DNA of 26,909 nt from an uncultured Bacilli bacterium (GTDB taxonomy: Bacteria; Bacillota_I; Bacilli_A; RF39; UBA660). This document shows, piece by piece, positions 1,504-26,909 of the stretch. The position numbers were made by a program, and so were the translations under genes. The notes beneath the pieces were generated by a model, which made no database searches, had not been told where the DNA came from, and saw nothing but the letters and a program-made list of their open reading frames with translations. The stretch's first letter is position 1, and every line of letters starts with the position of its first letter. The stretch is from contig CANQWT010000013.1 in the NCBI GenBank assembly GCA_947627635.1, positions 1 through 26,909 of the forward strand. Direction: 5' to 3'.

Positions 1504-2412
1504 TCATTCTTTTATAAAAACTTTTTCTTTTTTTTGTTGAGGTTTTGTATAACTTTCTTCAATTTGACAAATTTTTTTAAGATTTTCTCTAGCAGATTGA
1601 TGAAGAATATAAAAATCCTCTAACATTTCTTTATCTATTTTTCTTTTTGGTAAATTTTGGTATTCCATATCTTCTAAAGAGGGTAAGCCAAGTATCTTAC
1701 GAACTTTTTCATTTTGCTCCTCTTGGTCTTGAAGTACTAAATTTTCTCCACTTTGAACAGACTTTAACAGTTGATTAGAAACAAACAAATAATCTTTTTG
1801 GTTGGTAAAATCTTTAACCATCTTTTTTCCGTGGACTGTAATGACATTCACTGCATGCATTTTAATTGGATGAAGTTCATAAGGATAACAAAAATAAGTA
1901 GATAAATATCCTGTTTCTATTGGAAAGTTTTGGGAAAAATCATCAAAAAGTGTCGCAATATGACGGCATTCAGCTTTTCCACTAAATACTCTTTCTCCAT
2001 AAAGGCGAGGAATTTCATGAGAAACTTTACAACTTTCTACTTGAAAGGTTAAATCTTTAGAAAAAAGTCCTTGATATAAAGCATCTTGAAATAGATAAGC
2101 AACATCATATGAAGATGTAAAATCATATTGTTTCAAAAGCAAAGAGATAGAGTTCAAATAAGTTTGATAAAGTTGTTCCATTTCTAAAATATCTTTTTGC
2201 TTTCCTATAAATGTTTCGATATCATAATGCTTATCAATTTGCTTTTTTAAAGGAAGAAGACAAAAAGAAATAGGCAAAATAGAAATCAGAGACTGAGGAA
2301 AAGGAAACGAATATAAACTAGAAGTTAAAACTGCAAGAGAAGCTAAGTTTGCTCCTCTTTGAGCCCATTTTTGTTTTTGAATTTCCATATCAATACGATT
2401 TTTTTCTTTCAT
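1504..2412 (-). CDS. Membrane-anchored transglutaminase-like (papain-fold Cys-His-Asp) domain protein, paralog 1 of 3
   Basis: Hydrophobic N-terminal segments. Conserved GKAECRHIATLF matches the transglutaminase-core motif G-x-CRHFAxLF. Downstream HAVNVITVHGKKMVKDFTN matches the HAWxEV..GW..DPT His/Asp block. Confidence 0.5.
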   Translation of the reverse strand: MKEKNRIDMEIQKQKWAQRGANLASLAVLTSSLYSFPFPQSLISILPISFCLLPLKKQIDKHYDIETFIGKQKDILEMEQLYQTYLNSISLLLKQYDFTSSYDVAYLFQDALYQGLFSKDLTFQVESCKVSHEIPRLYGERVFSGKAECRHIATLFDDFSQNFPIETGYLSTYFCYPYELHPIKMHAVNVITVHGKKMVKDFTNQKDYLFVSNQLLKSVQSGENLVLQDQEEQNEKVRKILGLPSLEDMEYQNLPKRKIDKEMLEDFYILHQSARENLKKICQIEESYTKPQQKKEKVFIKE

Positions 2413-2427
2413 GATGCAACCTCCTTT

Positions 2428-3354
2428 TTATTTGATTATTTTTTTGGCTTTTCTAATGTCTGGCATGGTGTATTTTTCCTCAATTTGACAAATTCGTTCT
2501 AATTGACTTTGAGATTTTTGATTCAGTTGTTTCATATTCTTCATAACACTTAAAAACTGTTCTTCACGAAACTGTTGATTTCTTTCATTGCATGTTGTCA
2601 TATAGTCATCCATATTGAGTGATGGAAGAGCTAAAAATTTATCAATATCAGTTGCTTGATTTCCTTTGATAAAGAAGATACTACTGTCTTCAATTCCTTT
2701 TAGTTCTTTTGATGATGTGAACAAATATGTTTGATGATTGGTTATATCTCGCGCCATTTTTTTACCATTGACTTCTAGTAAACTGATGGCATGATTTGCT
2801 TGTTGCTTAGAAGTGTCTAGTTCCTCTCCTAAATATCCACCAAGCCATCCTGTTTTAAAAGGATAACTTTCTGTAAAGTTTAAAAACAAACTACTAATAT
2901 GGCGACAGCATCCTAATCCACTCATAACTCTACTTCCCTCTAATAGAAAATGATTGTGCTTAAATTGATGATTGTTATAGTGAAAAACTCCTTCTTTCGA
3001 AAAATAGCCATTCCATAAACTCATTTCAAAATATCCTGTGACATCTAATGGATGAGTAATAGAAAAAGCATCAAAAACCGCTTTTGCATCTTTTAAATAT
3101 GTACAGTAAAGTTCTAATAGCTCTTGCATATCTTTTTGTTTTAAAAGATAGGAAGTATCATCCATCTTTGTTCTAATCTGCTTTGTGAAGTAAAGATTAC
3201 TTCCTAATAGAAGTGGAACAGAAACTAAAAAAGGAAAACCTGTTAGATGAAGAAAAGGCATCAATATTGGAAGCCCCAAAGTAACCGTATCCAGTCCACT
3301 TTTAAGATAAAAAGACTTTTTACGATTTTCAAGAATATAATCTTTTTCTTTCAT
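2428..3354 (-). CDS. Membrane-anchored transglutaminase-like domain protein, paralog 2 of 3
   Basis: Same architecture as paralog 1: two N-terminal TM helices, SGLGCCRHISSLF Cys motif, HAISLLEVNGKKMARDITN His/Asp block. The C-terminal ERICQIEEKYTMP motif is shared by all three paralogs. Confidence 0.5.
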   Translation of the reverse strand: MKEKDYILENRKKSFYLKSGLDTVTLGLPILMPFLHLTGFPFLVSVPLLLGSNLYFTKQIRTKMDDTSYLLKQKDMQELLELYCTYLKDAKAVFDAFSITHPLDVTGYFEMSLWNGYFSKEGVFHYNNHQFKHNHFLLEGSRVMSGLGCCRHISSLFLNFTESYPFKTGWLGGYLGEELDTSKQQANHAISLLEVNGKKMARDITNHQTYLFTSSKELKGIEDSSIFFIKGNQATDIDKFLALPSLNMDDYMTTCNERNQQFREEQFLSVMKNMKQLNQKSQSQLERICQIEEKYTMPDIRKAKKIIK

Positions 3355-3370
3355 CCTTTCACTCCCTCTA

Positions 3371-4258
3371 TCAATACTTTTTCATGAATACCTTTTTCTC
3401 TTTCATTTGTGGTTCTGTATATTTTTCTTCAATTTCTGAAATTCGTTCTAGTTGTGGTCTAGATTGTTGTTGTAAAGCTCTTAATTCTTTAAAAAGAGAG
3501 GCTTTGTCTATCGAAGTAAGACTTTCTTTTTCTTCTTGATACTCCTCTATTTTCCAATGTGGTCCTTCTAAAATTCGAGCTTGTTCTAACGCTGAAATTG
3601 TCGTAAAACAGTCTACATAATAAACCATACTTTTTGCTTCATCCTCTAATCGTTTTGAACCTGTAAAGAAGTAGACATCACGATTGGTTAAATCTAGTCC
3701 TATACTTTTTCCTTTCCACTCAATAATATTGATGGCATGTCCTATACTTTTTTTAAAAGCCTTCTTCTTTGTTTGCCATGGAAAAGCAGAAAAACCATAA
3801 ACTTCAGGAGCAGTAAAAGAAAAGTTATCACTAAAATCATTAAAAAGTGCACTAACATGGCGACAAACTCCAGTACCACTCATAATTCTAGGGGCAAACA
3901 AAAGAAATAAGTTGTTATCATAAAAGCTATCTTGAAATTGAAACTGTCCACTTTTGGAAAAGATACCTTGGTAAATCGCATCTGAATAGACTTCTGCTAC
4001 GTCAAAAGGATGAGTAACTCCATTTTTTTGAAAGATAGATGCAACCTCACTTAAATATCCTTCATAAAGATAATAAAGCTCTCGAACATCATCTTGTCGG
4101 TATAAATACATTTGAAAATCACTTACATTTTCTAACTGTTCCATTACAGTTACTTGTAGGCGCTTACTAAATGGAATGAAATTTAAAATAGATTTTACCT
4201 TTTTGAGTTTTTCAATTTCTTTTTGTTGTTGATAACAGACTTCCTGATAAGCACTCAT
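3371..4258 (-). CDS. Transglutaminase-like domain protein, paralog 3 of 3 (N-terminus less hydrophobic)
   Basis: SGTGVCRHVSALFNDF and HAINIIEWKGKSIGLDLTN motifs and the C-terminal ERISEIEEKYTEP motif are present. It lacks the clear TM hairpin of the other two paralogs. Confidence 0.5.
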   Translation of the reverse strand: MSAYQEVCYQQQKEIEKLKKVKSILNFIPFSKRLQVTVMEQLENVSDFQMYLYRQDDVRELYYLYEGYLSEVASIFQKNGVTHPFDVAEVYSDAIYQGIFSKSGQFQFQDSFYDNNLFLLFAPRIMSGTGVCRHVSALFNDFSDNFSFTAPEVYGFSAFPWQTKKKAFKKSIGHAINIIEWKGKSIGLDLTNRDVYFFTGSKRLEDEAKSMVYYVDCFTTISALEQARILEGPHWKIEEYQEEKESLTSIDKASLFKELRALQQQSRPQLERISEIEEKYTEPQMKEKKVFMKKY

Positions 4259-8931: not shown

Positions 8932-9711
8932 TTATCTTTTTTTCATATAAGGCATCAAATAATCACCATCGTACTGATGTTTTTTCTGAGCAGTAGACAT
9001 TTTTTGTAAAACCATTGTACCTTCTTTAGAAATATGTTTAGGCTTCCATCCTCTTTTTAATTGGAATAAAATAGATGGATAATCATATCCTGTCATTGTT
9101 TCTAGGATTGTTAAGTTTAACATATAAGTATCAACACTTGGTGGAAGTATACCCTTTTTCATAAAGGGTCTTAATTCAGAAGTATTAAGGTCAATAGGAT
9201 AATTTTCAACTTGCATGTTATCCAAATCACAAAAACTAGTTTTTCTATTTCTTGGGTCAATTAAGATATTGGCATTATTGATATCACCATAAACAATTCC
9301 TTGTTCATGAAACTCATTCAATTGTGCTTTAACTTGATTCATAAAGAAAATAAAAAGTCGTGCATCCATATCTAATTGGTATAATGCATAAGCTCTTGGA
9401 TTTCTTGTCATATCATATCCTACAAATTGTCCGTTACAACTAATCGTTTTTAAGATTTTAACATCATTTCGAAAAGCTTCGTTATCGTAAAGTCTTATGA
9501 TTTTGATACATTTATTTTCTCTCATTTGTTCTTGTTCTTCACTTGTTTTGTCTTTGCATCCCATATCTTTTTTGAAGATTTTACGAGCAATAGGACGTCC
9601 ATTTGTATCCTTTAAGAATAAAACATCAGCTTCACTACCACCAGTTTTACTTTTCTTCCTCATTCTCTCTAATTCTTGATAACTAATTTCAATATTTCGT
9701 AATGTTTGCAT
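8932..9711 (-). CDS. Protein-kinase-like fold protein (CotS/aminoglycoside-phosphotransferase-like catalytic loop)
   Basis: GIVYGDINNANILID resembles the catalytic loop HGDLHxxNIL of the kinase-like fold. A downstream FCDLDN sits at the DFG-equivalent position. Confidence 0.45.
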   Translation of the reverse strand: MQTLRNIEISYQELERMRKKSKTGGSEADVLFLKDTNGRPIARKIFKKDMGCKDKTSEEQEQMRENKCIKIIRLYDNEAFRNDVKILKTISCNGQFVGYDMTRNPRAYALYQLDMDARLFIFFMNQVKAQLNEFHEQGIVYGDINNANILIDPRNRKTSFCDLDNMQVENYPIDLNTSELRPFMKKGILPPSVDTYMLNLTILETMTGYDYPSILFQLKRGWKPKHISKEGTMVLQKMSTAQKKHQYDGDYLMPYMKKR

Positions 9712-9815
9712 AATTTTAGTTTTCCCCCTTTTTAAACAGCCATATTATAACACAAAACGAGGAAAAACACAAGAAAAAGCAAACTAACAAAAAAAGGACT
9801 TAAAATAATTAAATC

Positions 9816-10922
9816 CTATTTAAATCCACATGTTGGATTAGAAATTCCATTGATTAGTTTTAAAACTTCTCCTACTAAAAATGGTAGTAGGAATAAAACG
9901 ACTACTGCGATTAAGCGAACAACAAGACGTGACTGAGCTTTTTTCATTGCCTCCTCATCAGAAGTTGCGATGGCTTTAATGAATTCTAACATACTTAAGA
10001 TAATGACTAGAACTGGTCCAATAATCTTAATATAGTTAAGAGCTGTTTGTATGAGCCATCCAAAGGATTCTTTTGTAAAGTTTCCATTTCCATCGGTTTT
10101 TCCAAAAATACCTTCACAGCCAATTCCTGAATTTAGTCCATCTAAATCAACATTGGAGTTTTCAGTATCTCTATTTTCTGGTAGAGTACGATCTGTATCT
10201 GCATCTGTCCCACTTTCTACAATTTTAATCCTATAATGAGCAAGATTAGAGGTATAATCTGAAACTTTATCAGCATAAATATAAGCAGGACAAGTAAATG
10301 CATTATCTTTATAAAATAAAGAAGTTGGATTATTTTCCATATCACAAACTGTTGAAACAGTAGAACTAACATCACAATCAAAAGAAGCTGTTTGATTATC
10401 TTTCTTAGTTACTTCTATAGTAGTATCTTGAGTAGGCTCACTTATATATTTACAGGAAGTGTCAGTAGAACTTTTTAGTTTATACTGTTGTCTTGAGTTT
10501 GCATTACTAGAAGTTGATTGATCTGTATCACCTTTTGTTCCATTTACATTTTCAATACAATTACCTTTTCCCTTATCTTTTTCACATTCATCTTTAGATT
10601 GATATACAATATAATCAGCATTCCAAGCTGTTACAAATACACTAATAGTTGGACAATTACCACTACTTAAACTAATACCATTTTTATCATAAAAAGTAAC
10701 TTTCTTAGTAAGAGTTCCCTGATTTGCAAAACCTGAACCCTTAGTTAAAACATTTTCATAGTTATCTGTTTCTAATACAATATTATTTTTTTCACTACCA
10801 GTACTATAAGTACAAACTGTTTTAGCGTAAACTTTAGTATAACTAGCAAAAAGTAGGACAAAAAAGAATAAAACATAAAACAGGTATTTCATTTGATTTT
10901 GTTTCTTTTTCATGATTATCAC
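9816..10922 (-). CDS. Secreted Cys-rich protein with a C-terminal two-helix membrane module
   Basis: Lys-rich N-terminus followed by a hydrophobic signal (YLFYVLFFFVLLFASYTKVYA). The ectodomain carries many Cys residues. The C-terminal IKIIGPVLVIILS..IKAIATSDEE..KKA..VVLFLLPFLV hairpin is homologous to the N-terminal modules of the ORFs at 17226 and 18258. Confidence 0.6.
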   Translation of the reverse strand: MIIMKKKQNQMKYLFYVLFFFVLLFASYTKVYAKTVCTYSTGSEKNNIVLETDNYENVLTKGSGFANQGTLTKKVTFYDKNGISLSSGNCPTISVFVTAWNADYIVYQSKDECEKDKGKGNCIENVNGTKGDTDQSTSSNANSRQQYKLKSSTDTSCKYISEPTQDTTIEVTKKDNQTASFDCDVSSTVSTVCDMENNPTSLFYKDNAFTCPAYIYADKVSDYTSNLAHYRIKIVESGTDADTDRTLPENRDTENSNVDLDGLNSGIGCEGIFGKTDGNGNFTKESFGWLIQTALNYIKIIGPVLVIILSMLEFIKAIATSDEEAMKKAQSRLVVRLIAVVVLFLLPFLVGEVLKLINGISNPTCGFK

Positions 10923-11123: not shown

Positions 11124-13073
11124 TTAGTTAGCATTTGGGGTGAGGACGATGCGAAAAGTAAGCCATGCAGTCATTCGACCATTATCACCACTGAATGCGA
11201 AAACTCCTGCATTTTGACCATTACTGGGGTAACCACCTCGAATCATCCATGGACTATCCGTATTCACCATCCATGTGAGATCACTATACCACTCTGCTCC
11301 TTCTCCTAAGGAATGTCCTTTACAGGAGTTTCCGTTACATGCTGTTTCTGTTAATATTGATGTGTATTCATCAAAGTACTTAGTAGCTGGCCATTCTCTT
11401 GCATTTTCTGTAAATTCGCTTTCGTCAGTTAATTTTCCTGAATAGCCCGAATTTCTTTCTTGTGCATTTCCACTCCGTTTTTCTAGCACTCCCATGGTGT
11501 ATTCCCATGCTCCTCCATTGATATCATAGATTCCCGTAATGTTTCCTGTACTTGAAGCTCCTGCTCCAGTATAACCCTTGCCTTCTCCTCTATCTACTAG
11601 GTCATCATACGCTGCTCCTTCTTCAGTGGAGCTTAAGGCTGATCCTTGTCCACTTGAACGTCCTGTCTTATAACCACTATAATTATTCATGAATACTTCT
11701 TTATTAGCTCCTGTATATAAAGAATTACCATATTTTCCATACTTGCTTTGAGTTAAGTATGATATCAAAGCCCACTCTGTGTTCTTTGAGGCATGACTAT
11801 CATATGTTTCTTGATTAAATCCGTAAATGTTTCCTACTTTCGTTATTCCCATAGATACTATTTCTAATGTTGACACTCGAATATTTCTCCATGAATATAC
11901 ATTTGGCTTAATTTGAACAGTTAAATTTTCTAGATCACAACCATTATTTACATCATTATTAGTGGTAGAACAGTTTTCAATGTTACTACTTTCAAACTTT
12001 CCTATCCATACTCCTGATAAGTTTTCATCACCAAAAGTAAATCCTGGTGGTGTAAACCATCCTTTGACACTTTGTCCTTTTTTGTACTGTGCTGTTCCAT
12101 CATCTTTTGTAGAGGTAGAGATAAATTTCACATCGATTTCTCCTGGATTTGCTGCACTTTCTCCACCCTTTCCATAATAATTTGTTCCATCTTCTGATTT
12201 AATTGTATAACTATATCTTGGTATCCATACAAACATCTGCAAGATATCATCCATATTGATTTTTGCTCCAGCTTTGGCATTCTTGTATGTTTCTCTTGTT
12301 TCATTTGTTACTGTTACTGCATTTGCCCAATTTTGTTTATCATAATCATACCACTTGTTATTCACATCTGCTTTAATCCAACTATATCCATTATAAACAA
12401 CAGGTATCATGTTATCTGAAAGCACTGGAGGATTAGGCTCTTGTTGGTTTTCATATCCTGCAAGCTGTTGTGTTGCATCTACTTTTAACTTTCCAAAGAA
12501 TACTTTTCCTTGAGCATCATTTCCTGCATCATAATTGAGCCAAACACGAAGTTCATAATCGATTTTATTTGCTTCACCTTTTAAAATTGTTCCAGCATCA
12601 ATAATACGATTATGAGGAAGAGTTTCTACTTCTTCTTTTCCATTTGCAATGAGTTGATAACGAATATCTTTTTCATCTAAATAACTACAATCAGGACATT
12701 CTTGTTGCTTTTCTTCATTGTCAATTAAAGAAAGCTGATAATCCAAATTCATCATACTTTCATTATCCAAAGTAAAGGTATAAGAAACACCTTTCTTACC
12801 CTCTTCATCAACAATAGGAACTGCAGGAACCTCAGAACCTAAATCAATTCCATCATTTGTCTCATCTAAAATAAGATTTAATTTCTTCGCATTAAGTCCA
12901 ACATTTTTTGTACCTTTTACTGATGTTCTTAACCAAGCATAACTAAGACTAAAAAAGAGAAGTAAGCAAATTATTAAAAGGATAATTCCACTAATAATCA
13001 TGGTCTTATTTTTTCTTTTTTTATTTCTTATATCCTCCATATATAAACACCCTATCTTTCTTGTAATAATCAT
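11124..13073 (-). CDS. Membrane-anchored surface protein with C-terminal FGE-sulfatase/C-type-lectin-like (DUF323-like) domain
   Basis: N-terminal TM (MIISGIILLIICLLLFF), then roughly 250 aa of beta-rich sequence. The C-terminal part carries FGE-fold hallmarks: NTEWALISYL ~ PTEAEWEYAAR, GGAWEYT ~ GNVWEWT, PWMIRGG ~ RVLRGGSW, and a terminal FRIVL ~ GFR. It is paralogous to the ORF at 25560. The true start could be the internal Met at 13040. Confidence 0.75.
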   Translation of the reverse strand: MIITRKIGCLYMEDIRNKKRKNKTMIISGIILLIICLLLFFSLSYAWLRTSVKGTKNVGLNAKKLNLILDETNDGIDLGSEVPAVPIVDEEGKKGVSYTFTLDNESMMNLDYQLSLIDNEEKQQECPDCSYLDEKDIRYQLIANGKEEVETLPHNRIIDAGTILKGEANKIDYELRVWLNYDAGNDAQGKVFFGKLKVDATQQLAGYENQQEPNPPVLSDNMIPVVYNGYSWIKADVNNKWYDYDKQNWANAVTVTNETRETYKNAKAGAKINMDDILQMFVWIPRYSYTIKSEDGTNYYGKGGESAANPGEIDVKFISTSTKDDGTAQYKKGQSVKGWFTPPGFTFGDENLSGVWIGKFESSNIENCSTTNNDVNNGCDLENLTVQIKPNVYSWRNIRVSTLEIVSMGITKVGNIYGFNQETYDSHASKNTEWALISYLTQSKYGKYGNSLYTGANKEVFMNNYSGYKTGRSSGQGSALSSTEEGAAYDDLVDRGEGKGYTGAGASSTGNITGIYDINGGAWEYTMGVLEKRSGNAQERNSGYSGKLTDESEFTENAREWPATKYFDEYTSILTETACNGNSCKGHSLGEGAEWYSDLTWMVNTDSPWMIRGGYPSNGQNAGVFAFSGDNGRMTAWLTFRIVLTPNAN

Positions 13074-13192
13074 AGCAAAGATAAGGTTTTCACTTGTTTA
13101 ATATTCCAAATTGTCATATGTAATATATTGTCAAGAAAAGTGAAGAATTTACACTCTATTGATTGGGTACTAATGTAGTCTTTTTTACTCCT

Positions 13193-13909
13193 TCATTCAA
13201 TATCAAAAACTTGTCCATCATCTGGAACGACTACATTTGAATACTCTAATTTTTTAAAAGCTTTTCTTGTTTCATCTTCCAAATGACTTACAACAAATAT
13301 ACAATTTGGGTATTTTTGACATAAATACGTAATATTATCAATGCCCATATGTGACTTTGTTCCCTTTAAAAGCATTCCATCACAAAATAAATAATCACAC
13401 TGACTAGCCATTTTTTCTACTGTTTCACAAAGACTTGTATCTCCTGTAAAACCTACAACTTTATTATTTTGATGAAATAAGTATCCATAAGCAGGAGCCA
13501 TTCTACCATGGTCTACTAAAACTTTTTCAATTTTGTAGGAAGCGATTTGAAAAGAATTTTGTAACTGATATTTTAAATCTAGCTCTTTAAATATATCTTT
13601 ACAAGAATTTGGAAAAGCAAGTAAAGTTATCTTTTTAATTTTACGAATTCCTTCCTTACTACAATAAACTGTTACTTTATTCTTTTCTGATTTAGATTTT
13701 AATAAATAGAAAAATGGCATATCAAAATAATGGTCACCATGAAAATGTGTTAGTAAAACATGTTCGATTTCAATAGGATTTAATTTTTGACGAAACAGAT
13801 TTTTACACATTCCATTTGGAACATCTACCAAAATATTATGATCAATTTTATAAGATGCACTATTATATGCATTCCACATACTTCCACTACCAACAACTTG
13901 TACTTTCAT
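13193..13909 (-). CDS. MBL-fold metallo-hydrolase
   Basis: The THFHGDH motif (HxHxDH) sits in a beta-lactamase-fold context. An RBS is present upstream. Confidence 0.7.
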   Translation of the reverse strand: MKVQVVGSGSMWNAYNSASYKIDHNILVDVPNGMCKNLFRQKLNPIEIEHVLLTHFHGDHYFDMPFFYLLKSKSEKNKVTVYCSKEGIRKIKKITLLAFPNSCKDIFKELDLKYQLQNSFQIASYKIEKVLVDHGRMAPAYGYLFHQNNKVVGFTGDTSLCETVEKMASQCDYLFCDGMLLKGTKSHMGIDNITYLCQKYPNCIFVVSHLEDETRKAFKKLEYSNVVVPDDGQVFDIE

Positions 13910-13955
13910 TCATATCATCCTCTTTTGTTTTATTAAATCATATTTTCTAAAAAAT

Positions 13956-14206
13956 GAAAATAAAAAGCAAGATTTTCGTAGAACTACTCATCTTACTTTC
14001 CTTTTGTTTTAAATAGACTTTACAAAATAAACTTTTCTTTTGTAATCCGATACTTGGCGGAACGAAACATTGTTATCTACATTACCATACCAATTGCTGA
14101 ATGCGAAAACACCTGTGTTCGCACCATTTTCAGCTCGTCCACCACGCTCTAACCATGGATACGTCGTATTCACCATATTATAGTTATCACCGTTTGTCGT
14201 CTATTC
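13956..14206. repeat. Cassette repeat copy 1: 5' boundary box + orphan C-terminal lectin-tip coding segment + conserved 3' flank
   Basis: The roughly 70-nt block GAAAATAAAAAGCAAGATTTTCGTAGAACTACTCATCTTACTTTCCTTTTGTT(T/A)TAAATAGACTTTACA is near-identical to 14998-15068. The shared box TATCACCGT.T.TCGTCTATTC marks the other end. Confidence 0.8.
14009..14200 (-). pseudogene. Orphan 3' gene fragment (last ~55 codons of FGE/lectin-like family)
   Basis: Minus-strand translation gives ...TTNGDNYNMVNTTYPWLERGGRAENGANTGVFAFSNWYGNVDNNVSFRQVSDYK... It aligns with the C-termini of the ORFs at 11124 and 25560. An in-frame TAG sits immediately 5', and no start codon is present. Confidence 0.7.
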
Positions 14207-14274
14207 TATTTTAGTTTAACACAAGTTTTCTTTTAAAATTTGATTTGTCAAAATGATGTAATATTAAAAAAAAT

Positions 14275-14943
14275 TTAATCTAAGTTCATACCATCAATAC
14301 TTGTATCATAAATCCATTGCTTTAAATCAGTATAATCTCCTGTCTCATAGAATTTTATTAACTTTTCAAAGAAAGTTGGTTGATTTTCTTGAGAAATAGT
14401 AATTATTCCACATCCATTATCAATCATGATTTTATTAGCAAACAACATAGCAACCCTTTTATTACCATCAATAAACATTTGTCTTCTCATAATCCACAGC
14501 ATAATTTCAATAGCTATTTCTGTTTTTGTTTTTTCAACTTGATTGAACAGTTCTTGAAGTTCTTCTTTAATTTGACTTTCTATTGGAAAATTAGGTTTCC
14601 AAGATGTTCCTCCAATATTTACTGGTGTTGTTCTTATCCTTCCTAGATTTTGGTCTAAAACTAATTTATCACAAGTAAGTTTATGTAAATGACATAATAC
14701 CTTAAAATCATCTTCTATTTCAGTATTTTCAAGAATAAACTGCCATGAATATTTTAAATTATTGATAGCGATAATTTTATCAACAGTTAATCCATTGACA
14801 ATACCCCCATCATAAATAGCTTGGGTTTCAGGATATGTAACACCAATTCCTTCCAAATTAGCACTTTTCCAAATATAATCTACAATATTTCTCTTTGCAA
14901 CAAATACATTTTGCTCTCGTGTTAGATTAAATTTGTCTTTCAT
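14275..14943 (-). CDS. Fic/Doc family protein (non-canonical motif QMFIDGNKR)
   Basis: The N-terminal SANLEGIGVT..ETQAIYDG matches the Fic S/T-x-x-IEGN region. The core WIMRRQMFIDGNKRVAMLF matches the Doc-type HxFxDGNKR motif, with Gln in place of the catalytic His. A GAGGTG RBS is present. Confidence 0.7.
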   Translation of the reverse strand: MKDKFNLTREQNVFVAKRNIVDYIWKSANLEGIGVTYPETQAIYDGGIVNGLTVDKIIAINNLKYSWQFILENTEIEDDFKVLCHLHKLTCDKLVLDQNLGRIRTTPVNIGGTSWKPNFPIESQIKEELQELFNQVEKTKTEIAIEIMLWIMRRQMFIDGNKRVAMLFANKIMIDNGCGIITISQENQPTFFEKLIKFYETGDYTDLKQWIYDTSIDGMNLD

Positions 14944-14997
14944 AAATAAATCACCTCATATAAAGCTCTTTTCTAACTAAAATTATATCATAATTTT

Positions 14998-15247
14998 GAA
15001 AATAAAAAGCAAGATTTTCGTAGAACTACTCATCTTACTTTCCTTTTGTTATAAATAGACTTTACAGAATACTATTTTTATCTGTAATCCAACTCTGGCG
15101 GAACGAAATCCATTCAGTAAACCGACCATTATCGTTGCTGAATGTGAAAACACCTGCGTTTGCCCCATTATCATGTTTACCACTACGGACAAACCAAGGG
15201 TTCGTCGTATTTACCATCCAATTTCTATCACCGTATCTCGTCTATTC
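14998..15247. repeat. Cassette repeat copy 2 (same organisation as copy 1)
   Basis: The 3' flank is more than 95% identical to copy 1 over about 70 nt. The 5' box TATCACCGTATCTCGTCTATTC is shared. The coding core is diverged. Confidence 0.8.
15062..15241 (-). pseudogene. Orphan 3' gene fragment (last ~55 codons of FGE/lectin-like family)
   Basis: Minus-strand translation gives ...TRYGDRNWMVNTTNPWFVRSGKHDNGANAGVFTFSNDNGRFTEWISFRQSWITDKNSIL*. An in-frame TAG sits at the 5' edge. It begins only 8 nt after the rubrerythrin stop. Confidence 0.7.
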
Positions 15248-15252
15248 CACTT

Positions 15253-15798
15253 TTATAAATAATTTTCTGCTTTTACTTCCATGTAACTTTTTGGATGTTT
15301 ACAAACAGGACAAACTTCTAATGCATCTTTTCCTACATAAACATGTCCACAATTTCTACAAATCCAAATTTTATCCCCATCTTTGTGGAAAACTTTATCA
15401 TCTTTAATATTCTTTAAAAGTGCTAAATATCTTTCTTCATGTTCTTTTTCAATTTTTCCAACTTCTTCAAAAAGATAAGCAATACGGCTAAATCCTTCTT
15501 CACGAGCTACTTCTGCGAATTCTTTATACATTTCTGTCCATTCGTAGTTTTCTCCGTTTGCAGCATCTTCTAAGTTTACCAAAGTTTCAGGTACATCTCC
15601 ACCATGAAGTTCTTTAAACCATAGTTTAGCATGTTCCTTTTCGTTGTTTGCTGTTTCTTCAAAAATTGCCGCAATTTGTTCATAACCATCTTTCTTAGCT
15701 TTTGAAGCATAATAAGTATACTTATTTCTTGCTTGGCTTTCTCCTGCGAATGCAGTCATTAAATTTTGTTCTGTTTTTGTTCCTTTTAAATTTTCCAT
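15253..15798 (-). CDS. rbr: Rubrerythrin
   Basis: An N-terminal ferritin-like diiron domain (E..EH..E..EH spacing) is followed by a C-terminal rubredoxin-like CxxC...CxxC (CRNCG...CPVCKHP). Confidence 0.92.
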
Positions 15799-15814
15799 TT
15801 TTTTCCTTCCTTTC

Positions 15815-17119
15815 TTAAATAACTTCTATATCAGAAGAATCCTCTTCGATTATAGACTTTTTAGTAAAATAGTCCCTGTGTAAATAGGCTTTGGCAAGTG
15901 GACTATTCGGATACATAAAATACATATCATACACTTGCTTTACATCCATATTTTCGTGACTACATCTTATTCTAGCACGTCTATCAAGCTTCGACAAGTT
16001 ATTCATTCTTTTTTTTGTCTGTTCACTTTGTAAATTGATTGTCCCAAGAGGCTGTCCTCCTCCACCAACACAACCATTTTCACAATTCATGACTTCAACA
16101 AAATCATAAAGTACTTCACCATTCTCTAAAGCTTCTAAGATAGGTCCTACTTCTTTCATTCCCCAAACGGAGGCGACCTTTAAAGTTTTTCTATAAGTTT
16201 TAACCTCAAGTACTCGCTTACTTTCTGTTTCTTCAAGGGTCTTAATTTTAAAAGGCTCACCCATTAAGAAAGAAAGTGTTCGAAGAACAGCTTCACTTAC
16301 TCCACCCTTTCTTCCAAAAATAGTCGCAGCTCCACTTCCTTCACTTAATAAAGCATCAAAATTTCTTTCTTTTTCTTCTTTTAAATTCACATTTTCTTCC
16401 TTTAATAAGAGAAGTAGTTCACTCGTTGTGATACAAATATCCATTCCTGGAACATCAATAATTTCTTGTTTTTTCGCTGTACAAGGAGCAACAACTACAT
16501 GAATAACATCTTCTTTTTTCAAATTTTCTTTTTCTAAAAAATAACTATTCAAAATAGCCCCTTGCATTCCAATTGGGCTTTTGGCTGTCGATAAATAACA
16601 TGTATACTGTGGATAAAATTTTGTCACATAAGAAACCCAAGCAGGACAACAAGAAGTAAAAAGTGGTCGATGTTCTCCATCCATAATAATTCCTAAAAAC
16701 TCTGTTGCTTCTTCCATGACTGTTAAATCTGCCCCAAAAGTAACATCAAAAACATAATCAAAGCCAATTCGTTTTAAAGCTCCTATTAACTGAGGCAAAT
16801 TGTTTTCATCCTCATCATAACCAAAAGCTTCTCTTAATGAAACACGAACTGCAGGTGCAAGTGAAATGGTCACAACTTTATTCGTGTCGTGCAAATAATC
16901 AAGGACTTTTTTATATTGATACTTAGGAGTAAGTGCCCCAACAGGACAAGATAAAATACATTGTCCACAACCAAGACAAGTCTTTTCATAAATATCTCTA
17001 TCTATCTTTTCTTTTTCAATACAAGTCTTTTTACAAATTCCACATTCAATACATCTTTCAATAATTCGGTTGATGCATTTATTTTCCTTGTCAATATAGA
17101 CTGCTTTCTTTTGCCCCAT
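15815..17119 (-). CDS. [FeFe]-hydrogenase catalytic subunit (HydA-like)
   Basis: N-terminal ferredoxin-like Cys clusters (CIECGIC...[13 protein letters not shown]). H-cluster motifs are present: L1 TSCCPAW, L2 [10 protein letters not shown]3 [14 protein letters not shown]. Confidence 0.85.
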
Positions 17120-25559: not shown

Positions 25560-26909
25560 TTATTGAGGTGTAAGAACCTGACGGAAAGAGCCATTTCCAT
25601 CTACATTACCATTCCATCCGTAGAATGTGAAAACTCCTGCGTATGTTTCATCCCCAGCTCGACCTCCACGATAGAACCATGGGCGTGTTGTACTCAATGT
25701 CCAAGGAGCATCACCATACCACCCTGCGACTTCGCCTAAGGCATGTCCCTTGCATGGATTTCCGTTACAGGCAGTTGCTATTGATATTGACGTGTAAACA
25801 TCATAGTATTTTTCATCGGGCCAGCCTCGTTCACTATCATAATTGCTTTCATCTGCGAGGAGTCCTGGATATCCTGAGTTCGCATTTGCTGTATTACCAC
25901 TTCGTTTCTCTAATACACCCATTGTATATTCCCAAGTAGCTCCATTTATATCATAAATTCCTGTGATGTTTCCTGTTGAACTTGCTCCGGCTCCTGCGTA
26001 GCCCTGACCATTTCCTCGGTCTACCATCACATCATATTGATTTGCACATGTTGTTGAACTACTTGCTGTTCCTTGTCCACTTGAACATCCTGTCATATAC
26101 CAATTGTAGTTATTTATAAATACTTGTTTATTTTCTCCGGTATATAATGGGTTACCATACTTTCCATATTTACTTTGTGTAAGGTAACTGATTAGTGCCC
26201 ACTCACTATTTTTTGAAGCATGACTATCATAGGTACTTTGATCAAAGCCATATATATTTTCTTCTTTTGTTATTCCCATAGACACTAACTCTAACGTTGA
26301 TATTCGAATTCCTCTCCATGAAGTAATATTAGGTTTGATTGCTACTAAGTTATCTGTATCCACATCTCCTGGACTTGTTCCATCAATTGATCCTGTCTCA
26401 AACTTACCTACCCATATCCCTGATAGGTTCTTCTCTCCAAACTTAAATCCTGGTGGAGTGTACCATCCACTTGGTGTATTTGAATTTGTATATTGGGCAC
26501 TTCCTTCATCTGTAGTAGAACTATTGATAAACTTCACGTCTATCTCTCCTGGTAAGGCTTGACTTGGTTCATCACTTCTTCCTTCCTCTTTCTTTCCATA
26601 GTAATGTGTTCCATCTTCACTCTTTATGGTGTAACTGTATCTCGGTATCCATACCCACATTTGGAGAATATCATCCATCTTTACTTCTTCTCCTGCTTCG
26701 GCATTCTTGTATGTCTCTCTACTTTCATTTGTTACTGTTACTGCATTCGCCCATTCTTGTTTATCGTAGTTATAATAGTCACTACTCTTCTTTACCCATG
26801 TCTTTCCATTGTATACGACTGGTATCATATTGTCACTTAGAACTGGAGGGTTTGCTCCACTCTTATCTTTTTCTATATAAGGTAATAAGTACTTACTATT
26901 ACTTGGAAA
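25560..26909 (-). CDS. FGE-sulfatase/C-type-lectin-like domain surface protein, paralog 2 (5'-partial; runs off window end)
   Basis: Manual translation upstream of the track start continues without a stop, ...FPSNSKYLLPYIEKDKSGANPPVLSDNMIPVVYNG, matching NPPVLSDNMIPVVYNG in paralog 1. The C-terminus is PWFYRGGRAGDETYAGVFTFYGWNGNVDGNGSFRQVLTPQ. Confidence 0.8.
   Translation of the reverse strand, partial: FPSNSKYLLPYIEKDKSGANPPVLSDNMIPVVYNGKTWVKKSSDYYNYDKQEWANAVTVTNESRETYKNAEAGEEVKMDDILQMWVWIPRYSYTIKSEDGTHYYGKKEEGRSDEPSQALPGEIDVKFINSSTTDEGSAQYTNSNTPSGWYTPPGFKFGEKNLSGIWVGKFETGSIDGTSPGDVDTDNLVAIKPNITSWRGIRISTLELVSMGITKEENIYGFDQSTYDSHASKNSEWALISYLTQSKYGKYGNPLYTGENKQVFINNYNWYMTGCSSGQGTASSSTTCANQYDVMVDRGNGQGYAGAGASSTGNITGIYDINGATWEYTMGVLEKRSGNTANANSGYPGLLADESNYDSERGWPDEKYYDVYTSISIATACNGNPCKGHALGEVAGWYGDAPWTLSTTRPWFYRGGRAGDETYAGVFTFYGWNGNVDGNGSFRQVLTPQ

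Follow-up and report, generated by a model that had tools for sequence, protein, structure and literature searches.

The window analysed here, a stretch of 26,909 nt with a GC content of ~31%, is one complete contig of an NCBI metagenome-assembled genome. It contains two short units, referred to as cassettes 1 and 2, and two genes of a single protein family, full1 and full2. Each cassette reproduces the variable C-terminal segment of that family between flanks that are predicted to fold as RNA. We consider it probable that each cassette is a stand-alone template RNA module (template repeat, TR) of the kind found in diversity-generating retroelements (DGRs). The units, their parts and the two family genes are as follows, all on the minus strand; RNA pairings are those of predicted minimum free energy (MFE) folds.

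13955-14206 (-): cassette 1, a complete template-repeat-like unit consisting of 5' arm, template core, post-template hairpin, 3' arm, A-rich linker and terminal hairpin with U tract
14199-14206 (-): 5' arm of cassette 1, GAAUAGAC, predicted to pair with 14011-14018, GUCUAUUU; the duplex encloses the template
14054-14191 (-): template-like core of cassette 1, 46 codons, GDNYNMVNTTYPWLERGGRAENGANTGVFAFSNWYGNVDNNVSFRQ, lacking both start and stop
14020-14045 (-): post-template hairpin of cassette 1, UUACAAAA ... UUUUGUAA; three pairs change on both sides among cassette 1, cassette 2 and the copy on contig L097 (below)
14011-14018 (-): 3' arm of cassette 1, GUCUAUUU, followed by the A-rich linker AAAACAAAAGG at 14000-14010
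13964-13999 (-): terminal hairpin of cassette 1, an AU-rich stem of 10-12 bp with the loop GAGUAGUUCUACGAAA, after which a U-rich tract extends to 13955; two pairs differ from L097 in both bases
14213-14221 (-): TGnTAAACT, read from the sequence as a putative extended -10-like element, 7 nt upstream of the 5' arm of cassette 1; the context is also present in L097
14997-15247 (-): cassette 2, the second unit, with flanks as in cassette 1 and a different core
15240-15247 (-): 5' arm of cassette 2, GAAUAGAC, predicted to pair with 15053-15060
15095-15232 (-): template-like core of cassette 2, GDRNWMVNTTNPWFVRSGKHDNGANAGVFTFSNDNGRFTEWISFRQ
15062-15087 (-): post-template hairpin of cassette 2, UUACAGA ... 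UCUGUAA
15006-15041 (-): terminal hairpin of cassette 2, identical to that of cassette 1
11124-13073 (-): full1, a full-length family gene of 649 aa, with its variable segment at ~11145-11282
25560-26909 (-): full2, a family gene that runs off the end of the contig

Conserved flanks and diverged cores of the two cassettes

A first-pass annotation of the window had described two start-less units of ~250 bp with a common 5' box that includes a TAG codon, a 3' flank of ~70 nt that is >95% identical between the copies, and flanks better conserved than the sequence between them. All of this is borne out. The units are 251-252 nt in length, and the 22-nt 5' box GAATAGACGAnAnACGGTGATA, within which the in-frame TAG sits, occurs exactly twice in the window (14185-14206 and 15226-15247; 0.01 expected by chance), with 20 of 22 positions matching between the copies. 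A 3' flank of 66 nt likewise occurs exactly twice (13955-14020 and 14997-15062; 0.00 expected), with 65 of 66 positions identical. When the two cassettes were compared by segment, the 5' box matched at 19/21 positions, the core at 89/131 (69%), the tail plus first hairpin at 24/36, and the stretch from the 3' arm through the terminal hairpin at 61/62; beyond the unit the sequences are unrelated. The contrast in identity between flank and core is significant (Fisher p = 2e-7). The idea that the TAG is a recoded codon was dropped, as the sequence upstream of it shows no homology to the family and cassette 2 begins 5 nt past the stop codon of a rubrerythrin gene.

The cores were said to encode the last ~55 codons of the family. 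They are indeed homologous to the gene C-termini, although the homology spans only GD...SFRQ, ~46-49 codons, and the last ~7 codons of the family (VLTPxx) are missing from the cassettes. The tails past FRQ are not family-like; they are homologous as nucleotides, yet the reading frame through them differs between the cassettes, and they are therefore under no apparent constraint as protein. By tblastn, cassette 2 is 61% identical to full1 over 46 aa, and cassette 1 is 55% identical to full2 over 47 aa. Among 174 family C-termini, full1 was the best match to the core of cassette 2 with a clear lead (score 159 vs 112 for the next), and full2 the best match to the core of cassette 1 with a marginal lead; these best matches amount to 25-27 of 46 residues. 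No homology to the flanks was found at the 3' ends of full1 or full2, either by alignment or in the searches for the box and the flank, which placed both only at the cassettes. A 24-mer of the flank was absent from the JGI metagenomes and IMG/VR.

A third unit with the window-type 5' box is located on contig L097, from another species, 28-60 nt past an intact family gene that is 58% identical to full1. Its 5' box is identical to that of cassette 1 at 21/21 positions, as are 11 bases upstream of it, its core is 57-58% identical to either cassette, and the sequence just outside the units does not align with L097. Because the L097 unit lies beside an intact gene, the shared 5' boundary is best read as the intrinsic edge of the unit and not as the scar of a deletion. 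The comparison indicates that the units are discrete conserved modules, in agreement with the earlier suggestion that random truncation does not account for them.

Cassettes 1 and 2 are predicted to fold alike, with GAAUAGAC pairing with GUCUAUUU around the core. Over the three copies (cassette 1, cassette 2 and L097) paired cells amounted to 98.7%, and five pairs change on both sides, compared with 0-1 in slid controls. All eight pairs of the enclosing duplex are invariant in the three copies, that is, without compensatory change. In these models the flanks act like structured RNA, in which base changes are compensated. All three window-type cores are in frame and stop-free and keep their scaffold residues, at 57-69% identity. 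These comparisons show the anatomy of the unit and, on predicted folds, the conservation of its flank structure across species.

A scan for promoters placed a promoter-like site at 14237-14208, with the proviso that the scan does not exceed its own shuffles. Rfam gave no match in 13100-15900. Sequences in L001 and L002 that resemble the 3' box proved to be part of a conserved but unrelated gene, and orphan units are absent from L096 and L098, other contigs of the window's clade (L098 being judged by its gene list only).

The genes next to the units were identified with Pfam:

13193-13909 (-): MBL-fold hydrolase gene, between cassette 1 and full1, outside the module
14275-14943 (-): Fic/DOC gene, between the two units, outside the module; its association with them is unconserved in the comparison with L097
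15253-15798: rubrerythrin gene, with its stop codon 5 nt before the start of cassette 2

These neighbours are as first described, including the abutment of cassette 2 on rubrerythrin. A general link between a cassette and the enzyme gene that follows it could not be upheld: the L097 unit is followed by glycosyltransferase genes, not by Fic or MBL. This bears on a further explanation, in which the cassettes would be scars or att-site duplications from insertion of the Fic and MBL genes by a mobile cassette carrying the 3' end of its target, or else orphan C-terminal modules with a partner gene, similar to contact-dependent inhibition (CDI) or Rhs systems. The different accessory gene after each unit, the nearly equal spacing of the cassettes (1041-1042 nt) and the drop in GC content to 27-28% over 13-15 kb of the window are compatible with such an origin. 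We nevertheless regard it as highly improbable. No integrase, recombinase or transposase was found in the window (Pfam, 30 submitted ORFs covering the large ORFs), the units are upstream, not downstream, of full1, and Fic plus MBL make no toxin-immunity pair for a 50-residue lectin tip. In addition, the L097 unit lies directly past an intact family gene and ahead of a glycosyltransferase operon, so that the unit is present without Fic or MBL.

The protein family and its template repeats in relatives

The family has at least 1,985 members in our protein search, none of its members matched a Pfam domain above threshold, and a profile search of the PDB gave no match. The FGE/C-type-lectin-like label that the first-pass annotation attached to it is weakly supported, as PF03781 appears below threshold in 5 of 34 members (best E = 0.0037) and the two AlphaFold models are of low confidence (pLDDT 56). 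In family proteins, including full1 at its N-terminus (family alignment A2), a transmembrane or signal segment ends in a conserved SYAWL-like motif; we take this segment to resemble the SipW-type (TasA/camelysin) signal peptides.

Variation within the family is confined to its tip. In four clusters of proteins with >=90% identity, ~570 residues are essentially invariant and variation falls in the last ~50 columns, between RGG and SFR. P0013 and P0121, a pair of closely related proteins of the window's clade, agree at ~98% of residues as far as GWYGD. They diverge from the following residue on, also after SFR, and this point of divergence is where the family homology of the cassettes has its 5' limit. 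As aligned, the cassette cores cover exactly the hypervariable segment of the family.

A separate observation concerns P0098, on the 80.8-kb contig of L008, a protein of the same VLTP-tail clade as the window genes, which has an Asn-rich tip (SGNYNYGSNAGSFNFNHS). The composition of this tip gives it the look of a fresh template copy and hints at DGR activity in the window's clade too.

A profile scan of metagenome contigs with the family alignment recovered 80 loci, a minority of which contain orphan C-terminal copies. In a separate scan of genome contigs, the relatives recovered were all at 32-36% identity, apart from two short fragments at 61% and 49%. No window-type unit was present at their loci; L003 carries a lineage-specific TR unit. 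Several of the orphan copies could be paired with the variable region (VR) of a family gene, with mismatches at the adenines of the template. At locus L066, an orphan copy aligns with the VR of the adjacent gene over 127 nt with 15 mismatches, 15/15 of them at TR adenines; two more orphans follow the first in an array of three, and one of these differs from VRs on three other contigs by 8 mismatches, 6 of which are at A. At L094, the TR at 13698 differs from the VR at nine positions, 9/9 at A. Judged from these alignments, the protein family is a demonstrated DGR target in relatives.

In some of these relatives the templates come in sets. At L094 (11882-14281) and L092 (~12726-14919), six tandem TR units fill ~2.3 kb without genes, 3' of a family gene, with a period of ~310-350 nt, and are followed by bAvd (PF22296) and a reverse transcriptase (RT) gene (RVT_1) that carries IGNYTSQ...YMDD motifs; similar arrays are also seen at L095 and L093. 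Across all arrays the units are head-to-tail, at 310-660 nt. One unit of the L094 array, at 12401, contains stops and is degenerate within an otherwise active array. Other proven TRs lie apart from an RT: those of L066, L087 and L003 have no RT within 6-10 kb. At L003 (15310-16223) a tandem pair of family genes is followed downstream by an Asn-rich TR and this in turn by an Avd homologue (56% identity over 78 aa), with an RT undetectable within ~6 kb; the VRs there are 18-21 nt longer than the TR. When the Avd of L094 was used as a tblastn query, matches were obtained in L092 and L003, and none in the window or L097.

The use of more than one template was visible in a group of 15 proteins that are identical outside the tip. 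Eight of their VRs are compatible with TR2 of the L094 array and seven with TR5 (0-1 incompatible positions), and therefore different templates serve the same gene, one gene being rewritten from different templates in different samples. Diversification of this family by DGRs, from multi-template sets with the anatomy of the cassettes, is thereby shown in the relatives. The modular swapping of tips that had been offered as one possibility for the cassettes receives support from this relative, where tips come from two units of one array.

In each lineage the proven TR units have conserved flanks and diverged cores. They share an order of elements: the upstream box forms a duplex with the downstream box, stem-loops follow the template directly, and an A-rich linker comes before the terminal hairpin. 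The enclosing duplex of lineage A comprises 14 bp with compensatory changes at three pairs, and the terminal hairpin has a stem that varies by lineage and a loop that keeps (U/G)AGUAG N4-7 YGAA. The VRs and TRs of the relatives also have 20-25 nt of GC-rich identity and post-VR hairpins, for example GTTGCGAAGCAAC.

The earlier proposal for the cassettes was that they are silent donors for RecA-type segmental gene conversion into the expressed lectin-like genes, in the style of pilS, vls and tprK. Partial copies that have no promoter, are free of stops and have conserved boundaries would be expected of such donors, and the whole-tip replacement between the near-identical P0013 and P0121, which includes residues past SFR, could be produced in this way. 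We consider it very unlikely, because neither full-length gene has the conserved flanks and no mosaic turned up. Flanks that are missing at and after both genes cannot serve as homology arms, the islands that the cores have in common with the genes are only ~20 nt long at most, and comparisons with 174 C-termini and 121 proteins and a word search of 5.8 billion sequences brought up no protein whose core or tail resembles that of a cassette. Moreover, the constraint on the flanks is that of base pairing and not of sequence shared with a recipient, and relatives with the same anatomy use RT-mediated, adenine-specific copying. The prediction that expressed genes are mosaics of cassette cores was not borne out in any of the proteins compared.

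Three further observations were made at the DGR loci of relatives. At L087 (12367-12606), template-type flanks surround a diversified-looking core, VR-like and not Asn-rich, as if a template module had been rewritten. At L092 (15261-18239), the DGR RT gene is split, with residues 1-222 and 224-353 ~1.9 kb apart and a 438-aa RVT_1 ORF in between; the insert is probably a group II intron. Finally, IS605 OrfB/TnpB (Cas12f-like TNB) genes are found directly upstream of the DGR target at L094 (8642-9791) and L095 (1201-2349), and are fragmented in L094.

Probable template modules and the question of their activity

The anatomy of the cassettes led us to the interpretation that they are stand-alone DGR-type template modules. 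They are non-coding, stop-free copies of the variable C-terminal segment, as TRs are, and the enclosing duplex and downstream stem-loop that characterize the RNA around a TR are predicted in both. Under this interpretation the unit would be transcribed as RNA, its 3' arm would pair back on the 5' arm with the template looped out, and the structured flanks would recruit a DGR RT and its Avd partner from genes located elsewhere in the genome. Copying of the template into cDNA would then introduce errors at adenines, and the cDNA would replace the variable region of a family gene, so that two units with different cores would represent two alternative tip scaffolds. That the window units are transcribed, recognized by RT and Avd and used at the present day is suggested by analogy with the relatives, and we hold present-day activity with lower confidence than the module interpretation as a whole.

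A number of results weigh against this interpretation. No RT or Avd was found on the 26.9-kb contig with Pfam, a SQ...YxDD motif regex (validated on a true RT) or tblastn with the L094 RT and Avd, and tblastn with the same queries found neither on the 7-kb L097 contig. In the 12 ordered pairs that can be formed among cassette 1, cassette 2, full1 and full2, identity is 54-69% and 30-43% of mismatches are at A; between the L097 orphan and its neighbouring gene there are 63 mismatches, of which 22 are at A. A VR compatible with either cassette was found in none of 121 family proteins, each showing at least nine incompatible positions. The cassettes have a modest content of Asn compared with the 10-13 per 35-42 residues of proven TRs, although Asn-poor units exist in the L094 array. 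The GC-rich homing sequence and post-VR hairpin are absent from the local genes. A covariance model built from the TR flanks of lineages A and B scored the window hairpins at 11.5 bits (E = 2.8), and an nhmmer profile of proven TR flanks gave E ~7-8 on the window, neither of which is significant; homology of the flanks therefore rests on architecture and not on a sequence match. The loop motif AGUAG N4-7 YGAA is common to the cassettes and the proven TRs, though it was noticed post hoc and has 1.3 chance matches per window.

A TR/VR relation within the window was considered and rejected, as the mismatches are not adenine-specific. On these alignments, neither local gene is currently rewritten from the cassettes. 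A word search of 5.8 billion proteins with the cassette 1 peptide gave no match, in a search that needs three shared 5-residue words and that a diversified VR could escape. Asn accounts for 9/46 residues in cassette 1 and 7/46 in cassette 2; the local VRs have 3-4/46 and the L097 orphan has 4/46. At the 3' end, the local genes have only TT(C/T)CG(C/T) and a few more bases in common with the cassettes; the codons TCG TTC CGC of proven TRs are retained in the cassettes, while the local genes have others at this place.

It is conceivable, although we judge it unlikely, that the cassettes are fossil template units, derived from a DGR whose retroelement has been lost or inactivated in the lineage, and are now idle or merely terminators for the genes upstream. 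The contig without RT or Avd and the local genes without homing-site features would suit such an origin. So would the nearest pairs, cassette 2 with full1 and cassette 1 with full2, which are only 66-67% identical at the nucleotide level with mostly non-A mismatches; they resemble old pairs that have gone unrewritten, and this too counts against present activity as DGR templates. Decay of such loci is seen in relatives, in the TR of L003 with its Avd homologue and no RT near, and degenerate units such as L094 12401 occur even in active arrays. A fossil origin is harder to reconcile with flanks that match at 61/62 positions within the genome, compared with 89/131 for the cores, with a 5' box that is 21/21 identical to that of L097, or with the compensatory changes in helices 2 and 3. 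Furthermore, three cores have remained in frame and stop-free with their scaffold residues, and neutral sequence just beyond the units does not align. We lean towards functional modules over fossils because the flanks are near-identical within the genome and base-paired across species, and the cores keep their coding capacity.

If the stand-alone modules are functional, they may belong to a distributed multi-template DGR, in which small template-RNA genes are scattered away from the RT-Avd genes and act in trans. A cell could switch the whole scaffold of a lectin tip first, by its choice of template, and hypermutate it after, and Asn-poor units would act as 'reset' or archival templates with low mutagenesis. 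We offer this larger scheme tentatively, as a possibility that goes well beyond the identity of the units.

Relation to known systems and the remainder of the contig

In the general layout described for DGR RNAs, a duplex surrounds the template, a stem-loop lies just downstream and an adenosine-rich sequence is present (Handa et al. 2018; bioRxiv 2023.10.23.563531), as in the prototype, the avd-TR-Sp RNA of Bordetella phage BPP-1. Like the cassettes, a BPP-1-type TR RNA duplicates, without a start codon, the variable C-terminal region of a ligand-binding protein, with constrained flanks around an evolving template, and has the enclosing duplex, the stem-loop after the template and the adenosine-rich stretch. 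Unlike it, the cassettes have no adjoining avd or RT, no VR partner found to differ at adenines only, and a mild Asn content. Their downstream RNA is short (~110 nt), they have the look of small genes of their own, with a -10-like box and a terminator-like end, and unrelated protein genes lie between the two units.

A further comparison is with the arrays of L094, L092 and L066, which resemble the cassettes in target family, in the segment copied, in the contrast between conserved flanks and diverged cores, in the order of elements and in the loop motif, and which include some Asn-poor members. The arrays differ in being head-to-tail and in having a GC-rich 3' homing segment common to the VR. 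Each array also has at least one unit that agrees with the VR at all positions other than A, and no similarity between their flanks and those of the window is detectable in primary sequence.

In remote-target DGRs, found in Treponema denticola and others, the retroelement acts in trans over a long distance and there are several paralogous targets per genome (Wu et al. 2018, PMC5758913). There the target is remote and the TR stays by the RT, whereas in the window, and likewise in L066, L087 and L003, the template unit is the part found at a distance from any RT. The donor copies of Neisseria pilS, Borrelia vls, Treponema tprK and Mycoplasma synoviae vlhA are similar to the cassettes in that they are promoterless partial copies of the variable part of a surface protein, several per genome. 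These donors have conserved DNA, flanking or interspersed, in common with the expression site and act by DNA recombination, while the flanks of the cassettes are absent from the genes and form a base-paired structure.

DGRs, template repeats and remote targets are thus already known, and the strongest new biology in this study comes from the related loci and not from the window. Surveys have noted a minority of DGRs that have more than one TR and set them aside (PMC11661182; PMC6642488). In the literature searched, we found no account of tandem arrays of complete template units used alternatively on one gene, and none of template units distant from any RT or of template-like units with ordinary genes between them. 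Should template RNAs be able to exist as genes of their own, and in sets that offer alternative scaffolds, the reach of DGRs in gut Bacillota would be underestimated, since RT-anchored pipelines usually assume one adjoining template and would miss stand-alone modules entirely. Template switching, if true, would be a second layer of diversification above adenine mutagenesis. A large family without a Pfam domain gains an annotation as DGR-diversified, and orphan 3' ends of this kind should not be taken by default for pseudogenes or gene-conversion cassettes.

The rest of the contig contains housekeeping and sporulation genes (obg, L27, L21, efp, tig, lon, S16, khpA, cotE, rubrerythrin and Fe-hydrogenase, by Pfam). 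Exact-protein look-ups of rubrerythrin, P0001, P0002, P0003 and P0004 returned no records. At 1504-4258 (-) there are three tandem paralogous ORFs of 302, 308 and 295 aa, which have internal repeats in common and are without a Pfam match. Directly 3' of full1, at 8932-10922 (-), a 368-aa secreted protein with a C-terminus resembling a type IV secretion system (T4SS) pilin, below threshold, is followed by a 259-aa protein-kinase-like ORF, and both may have a functional tie to the surface protein.

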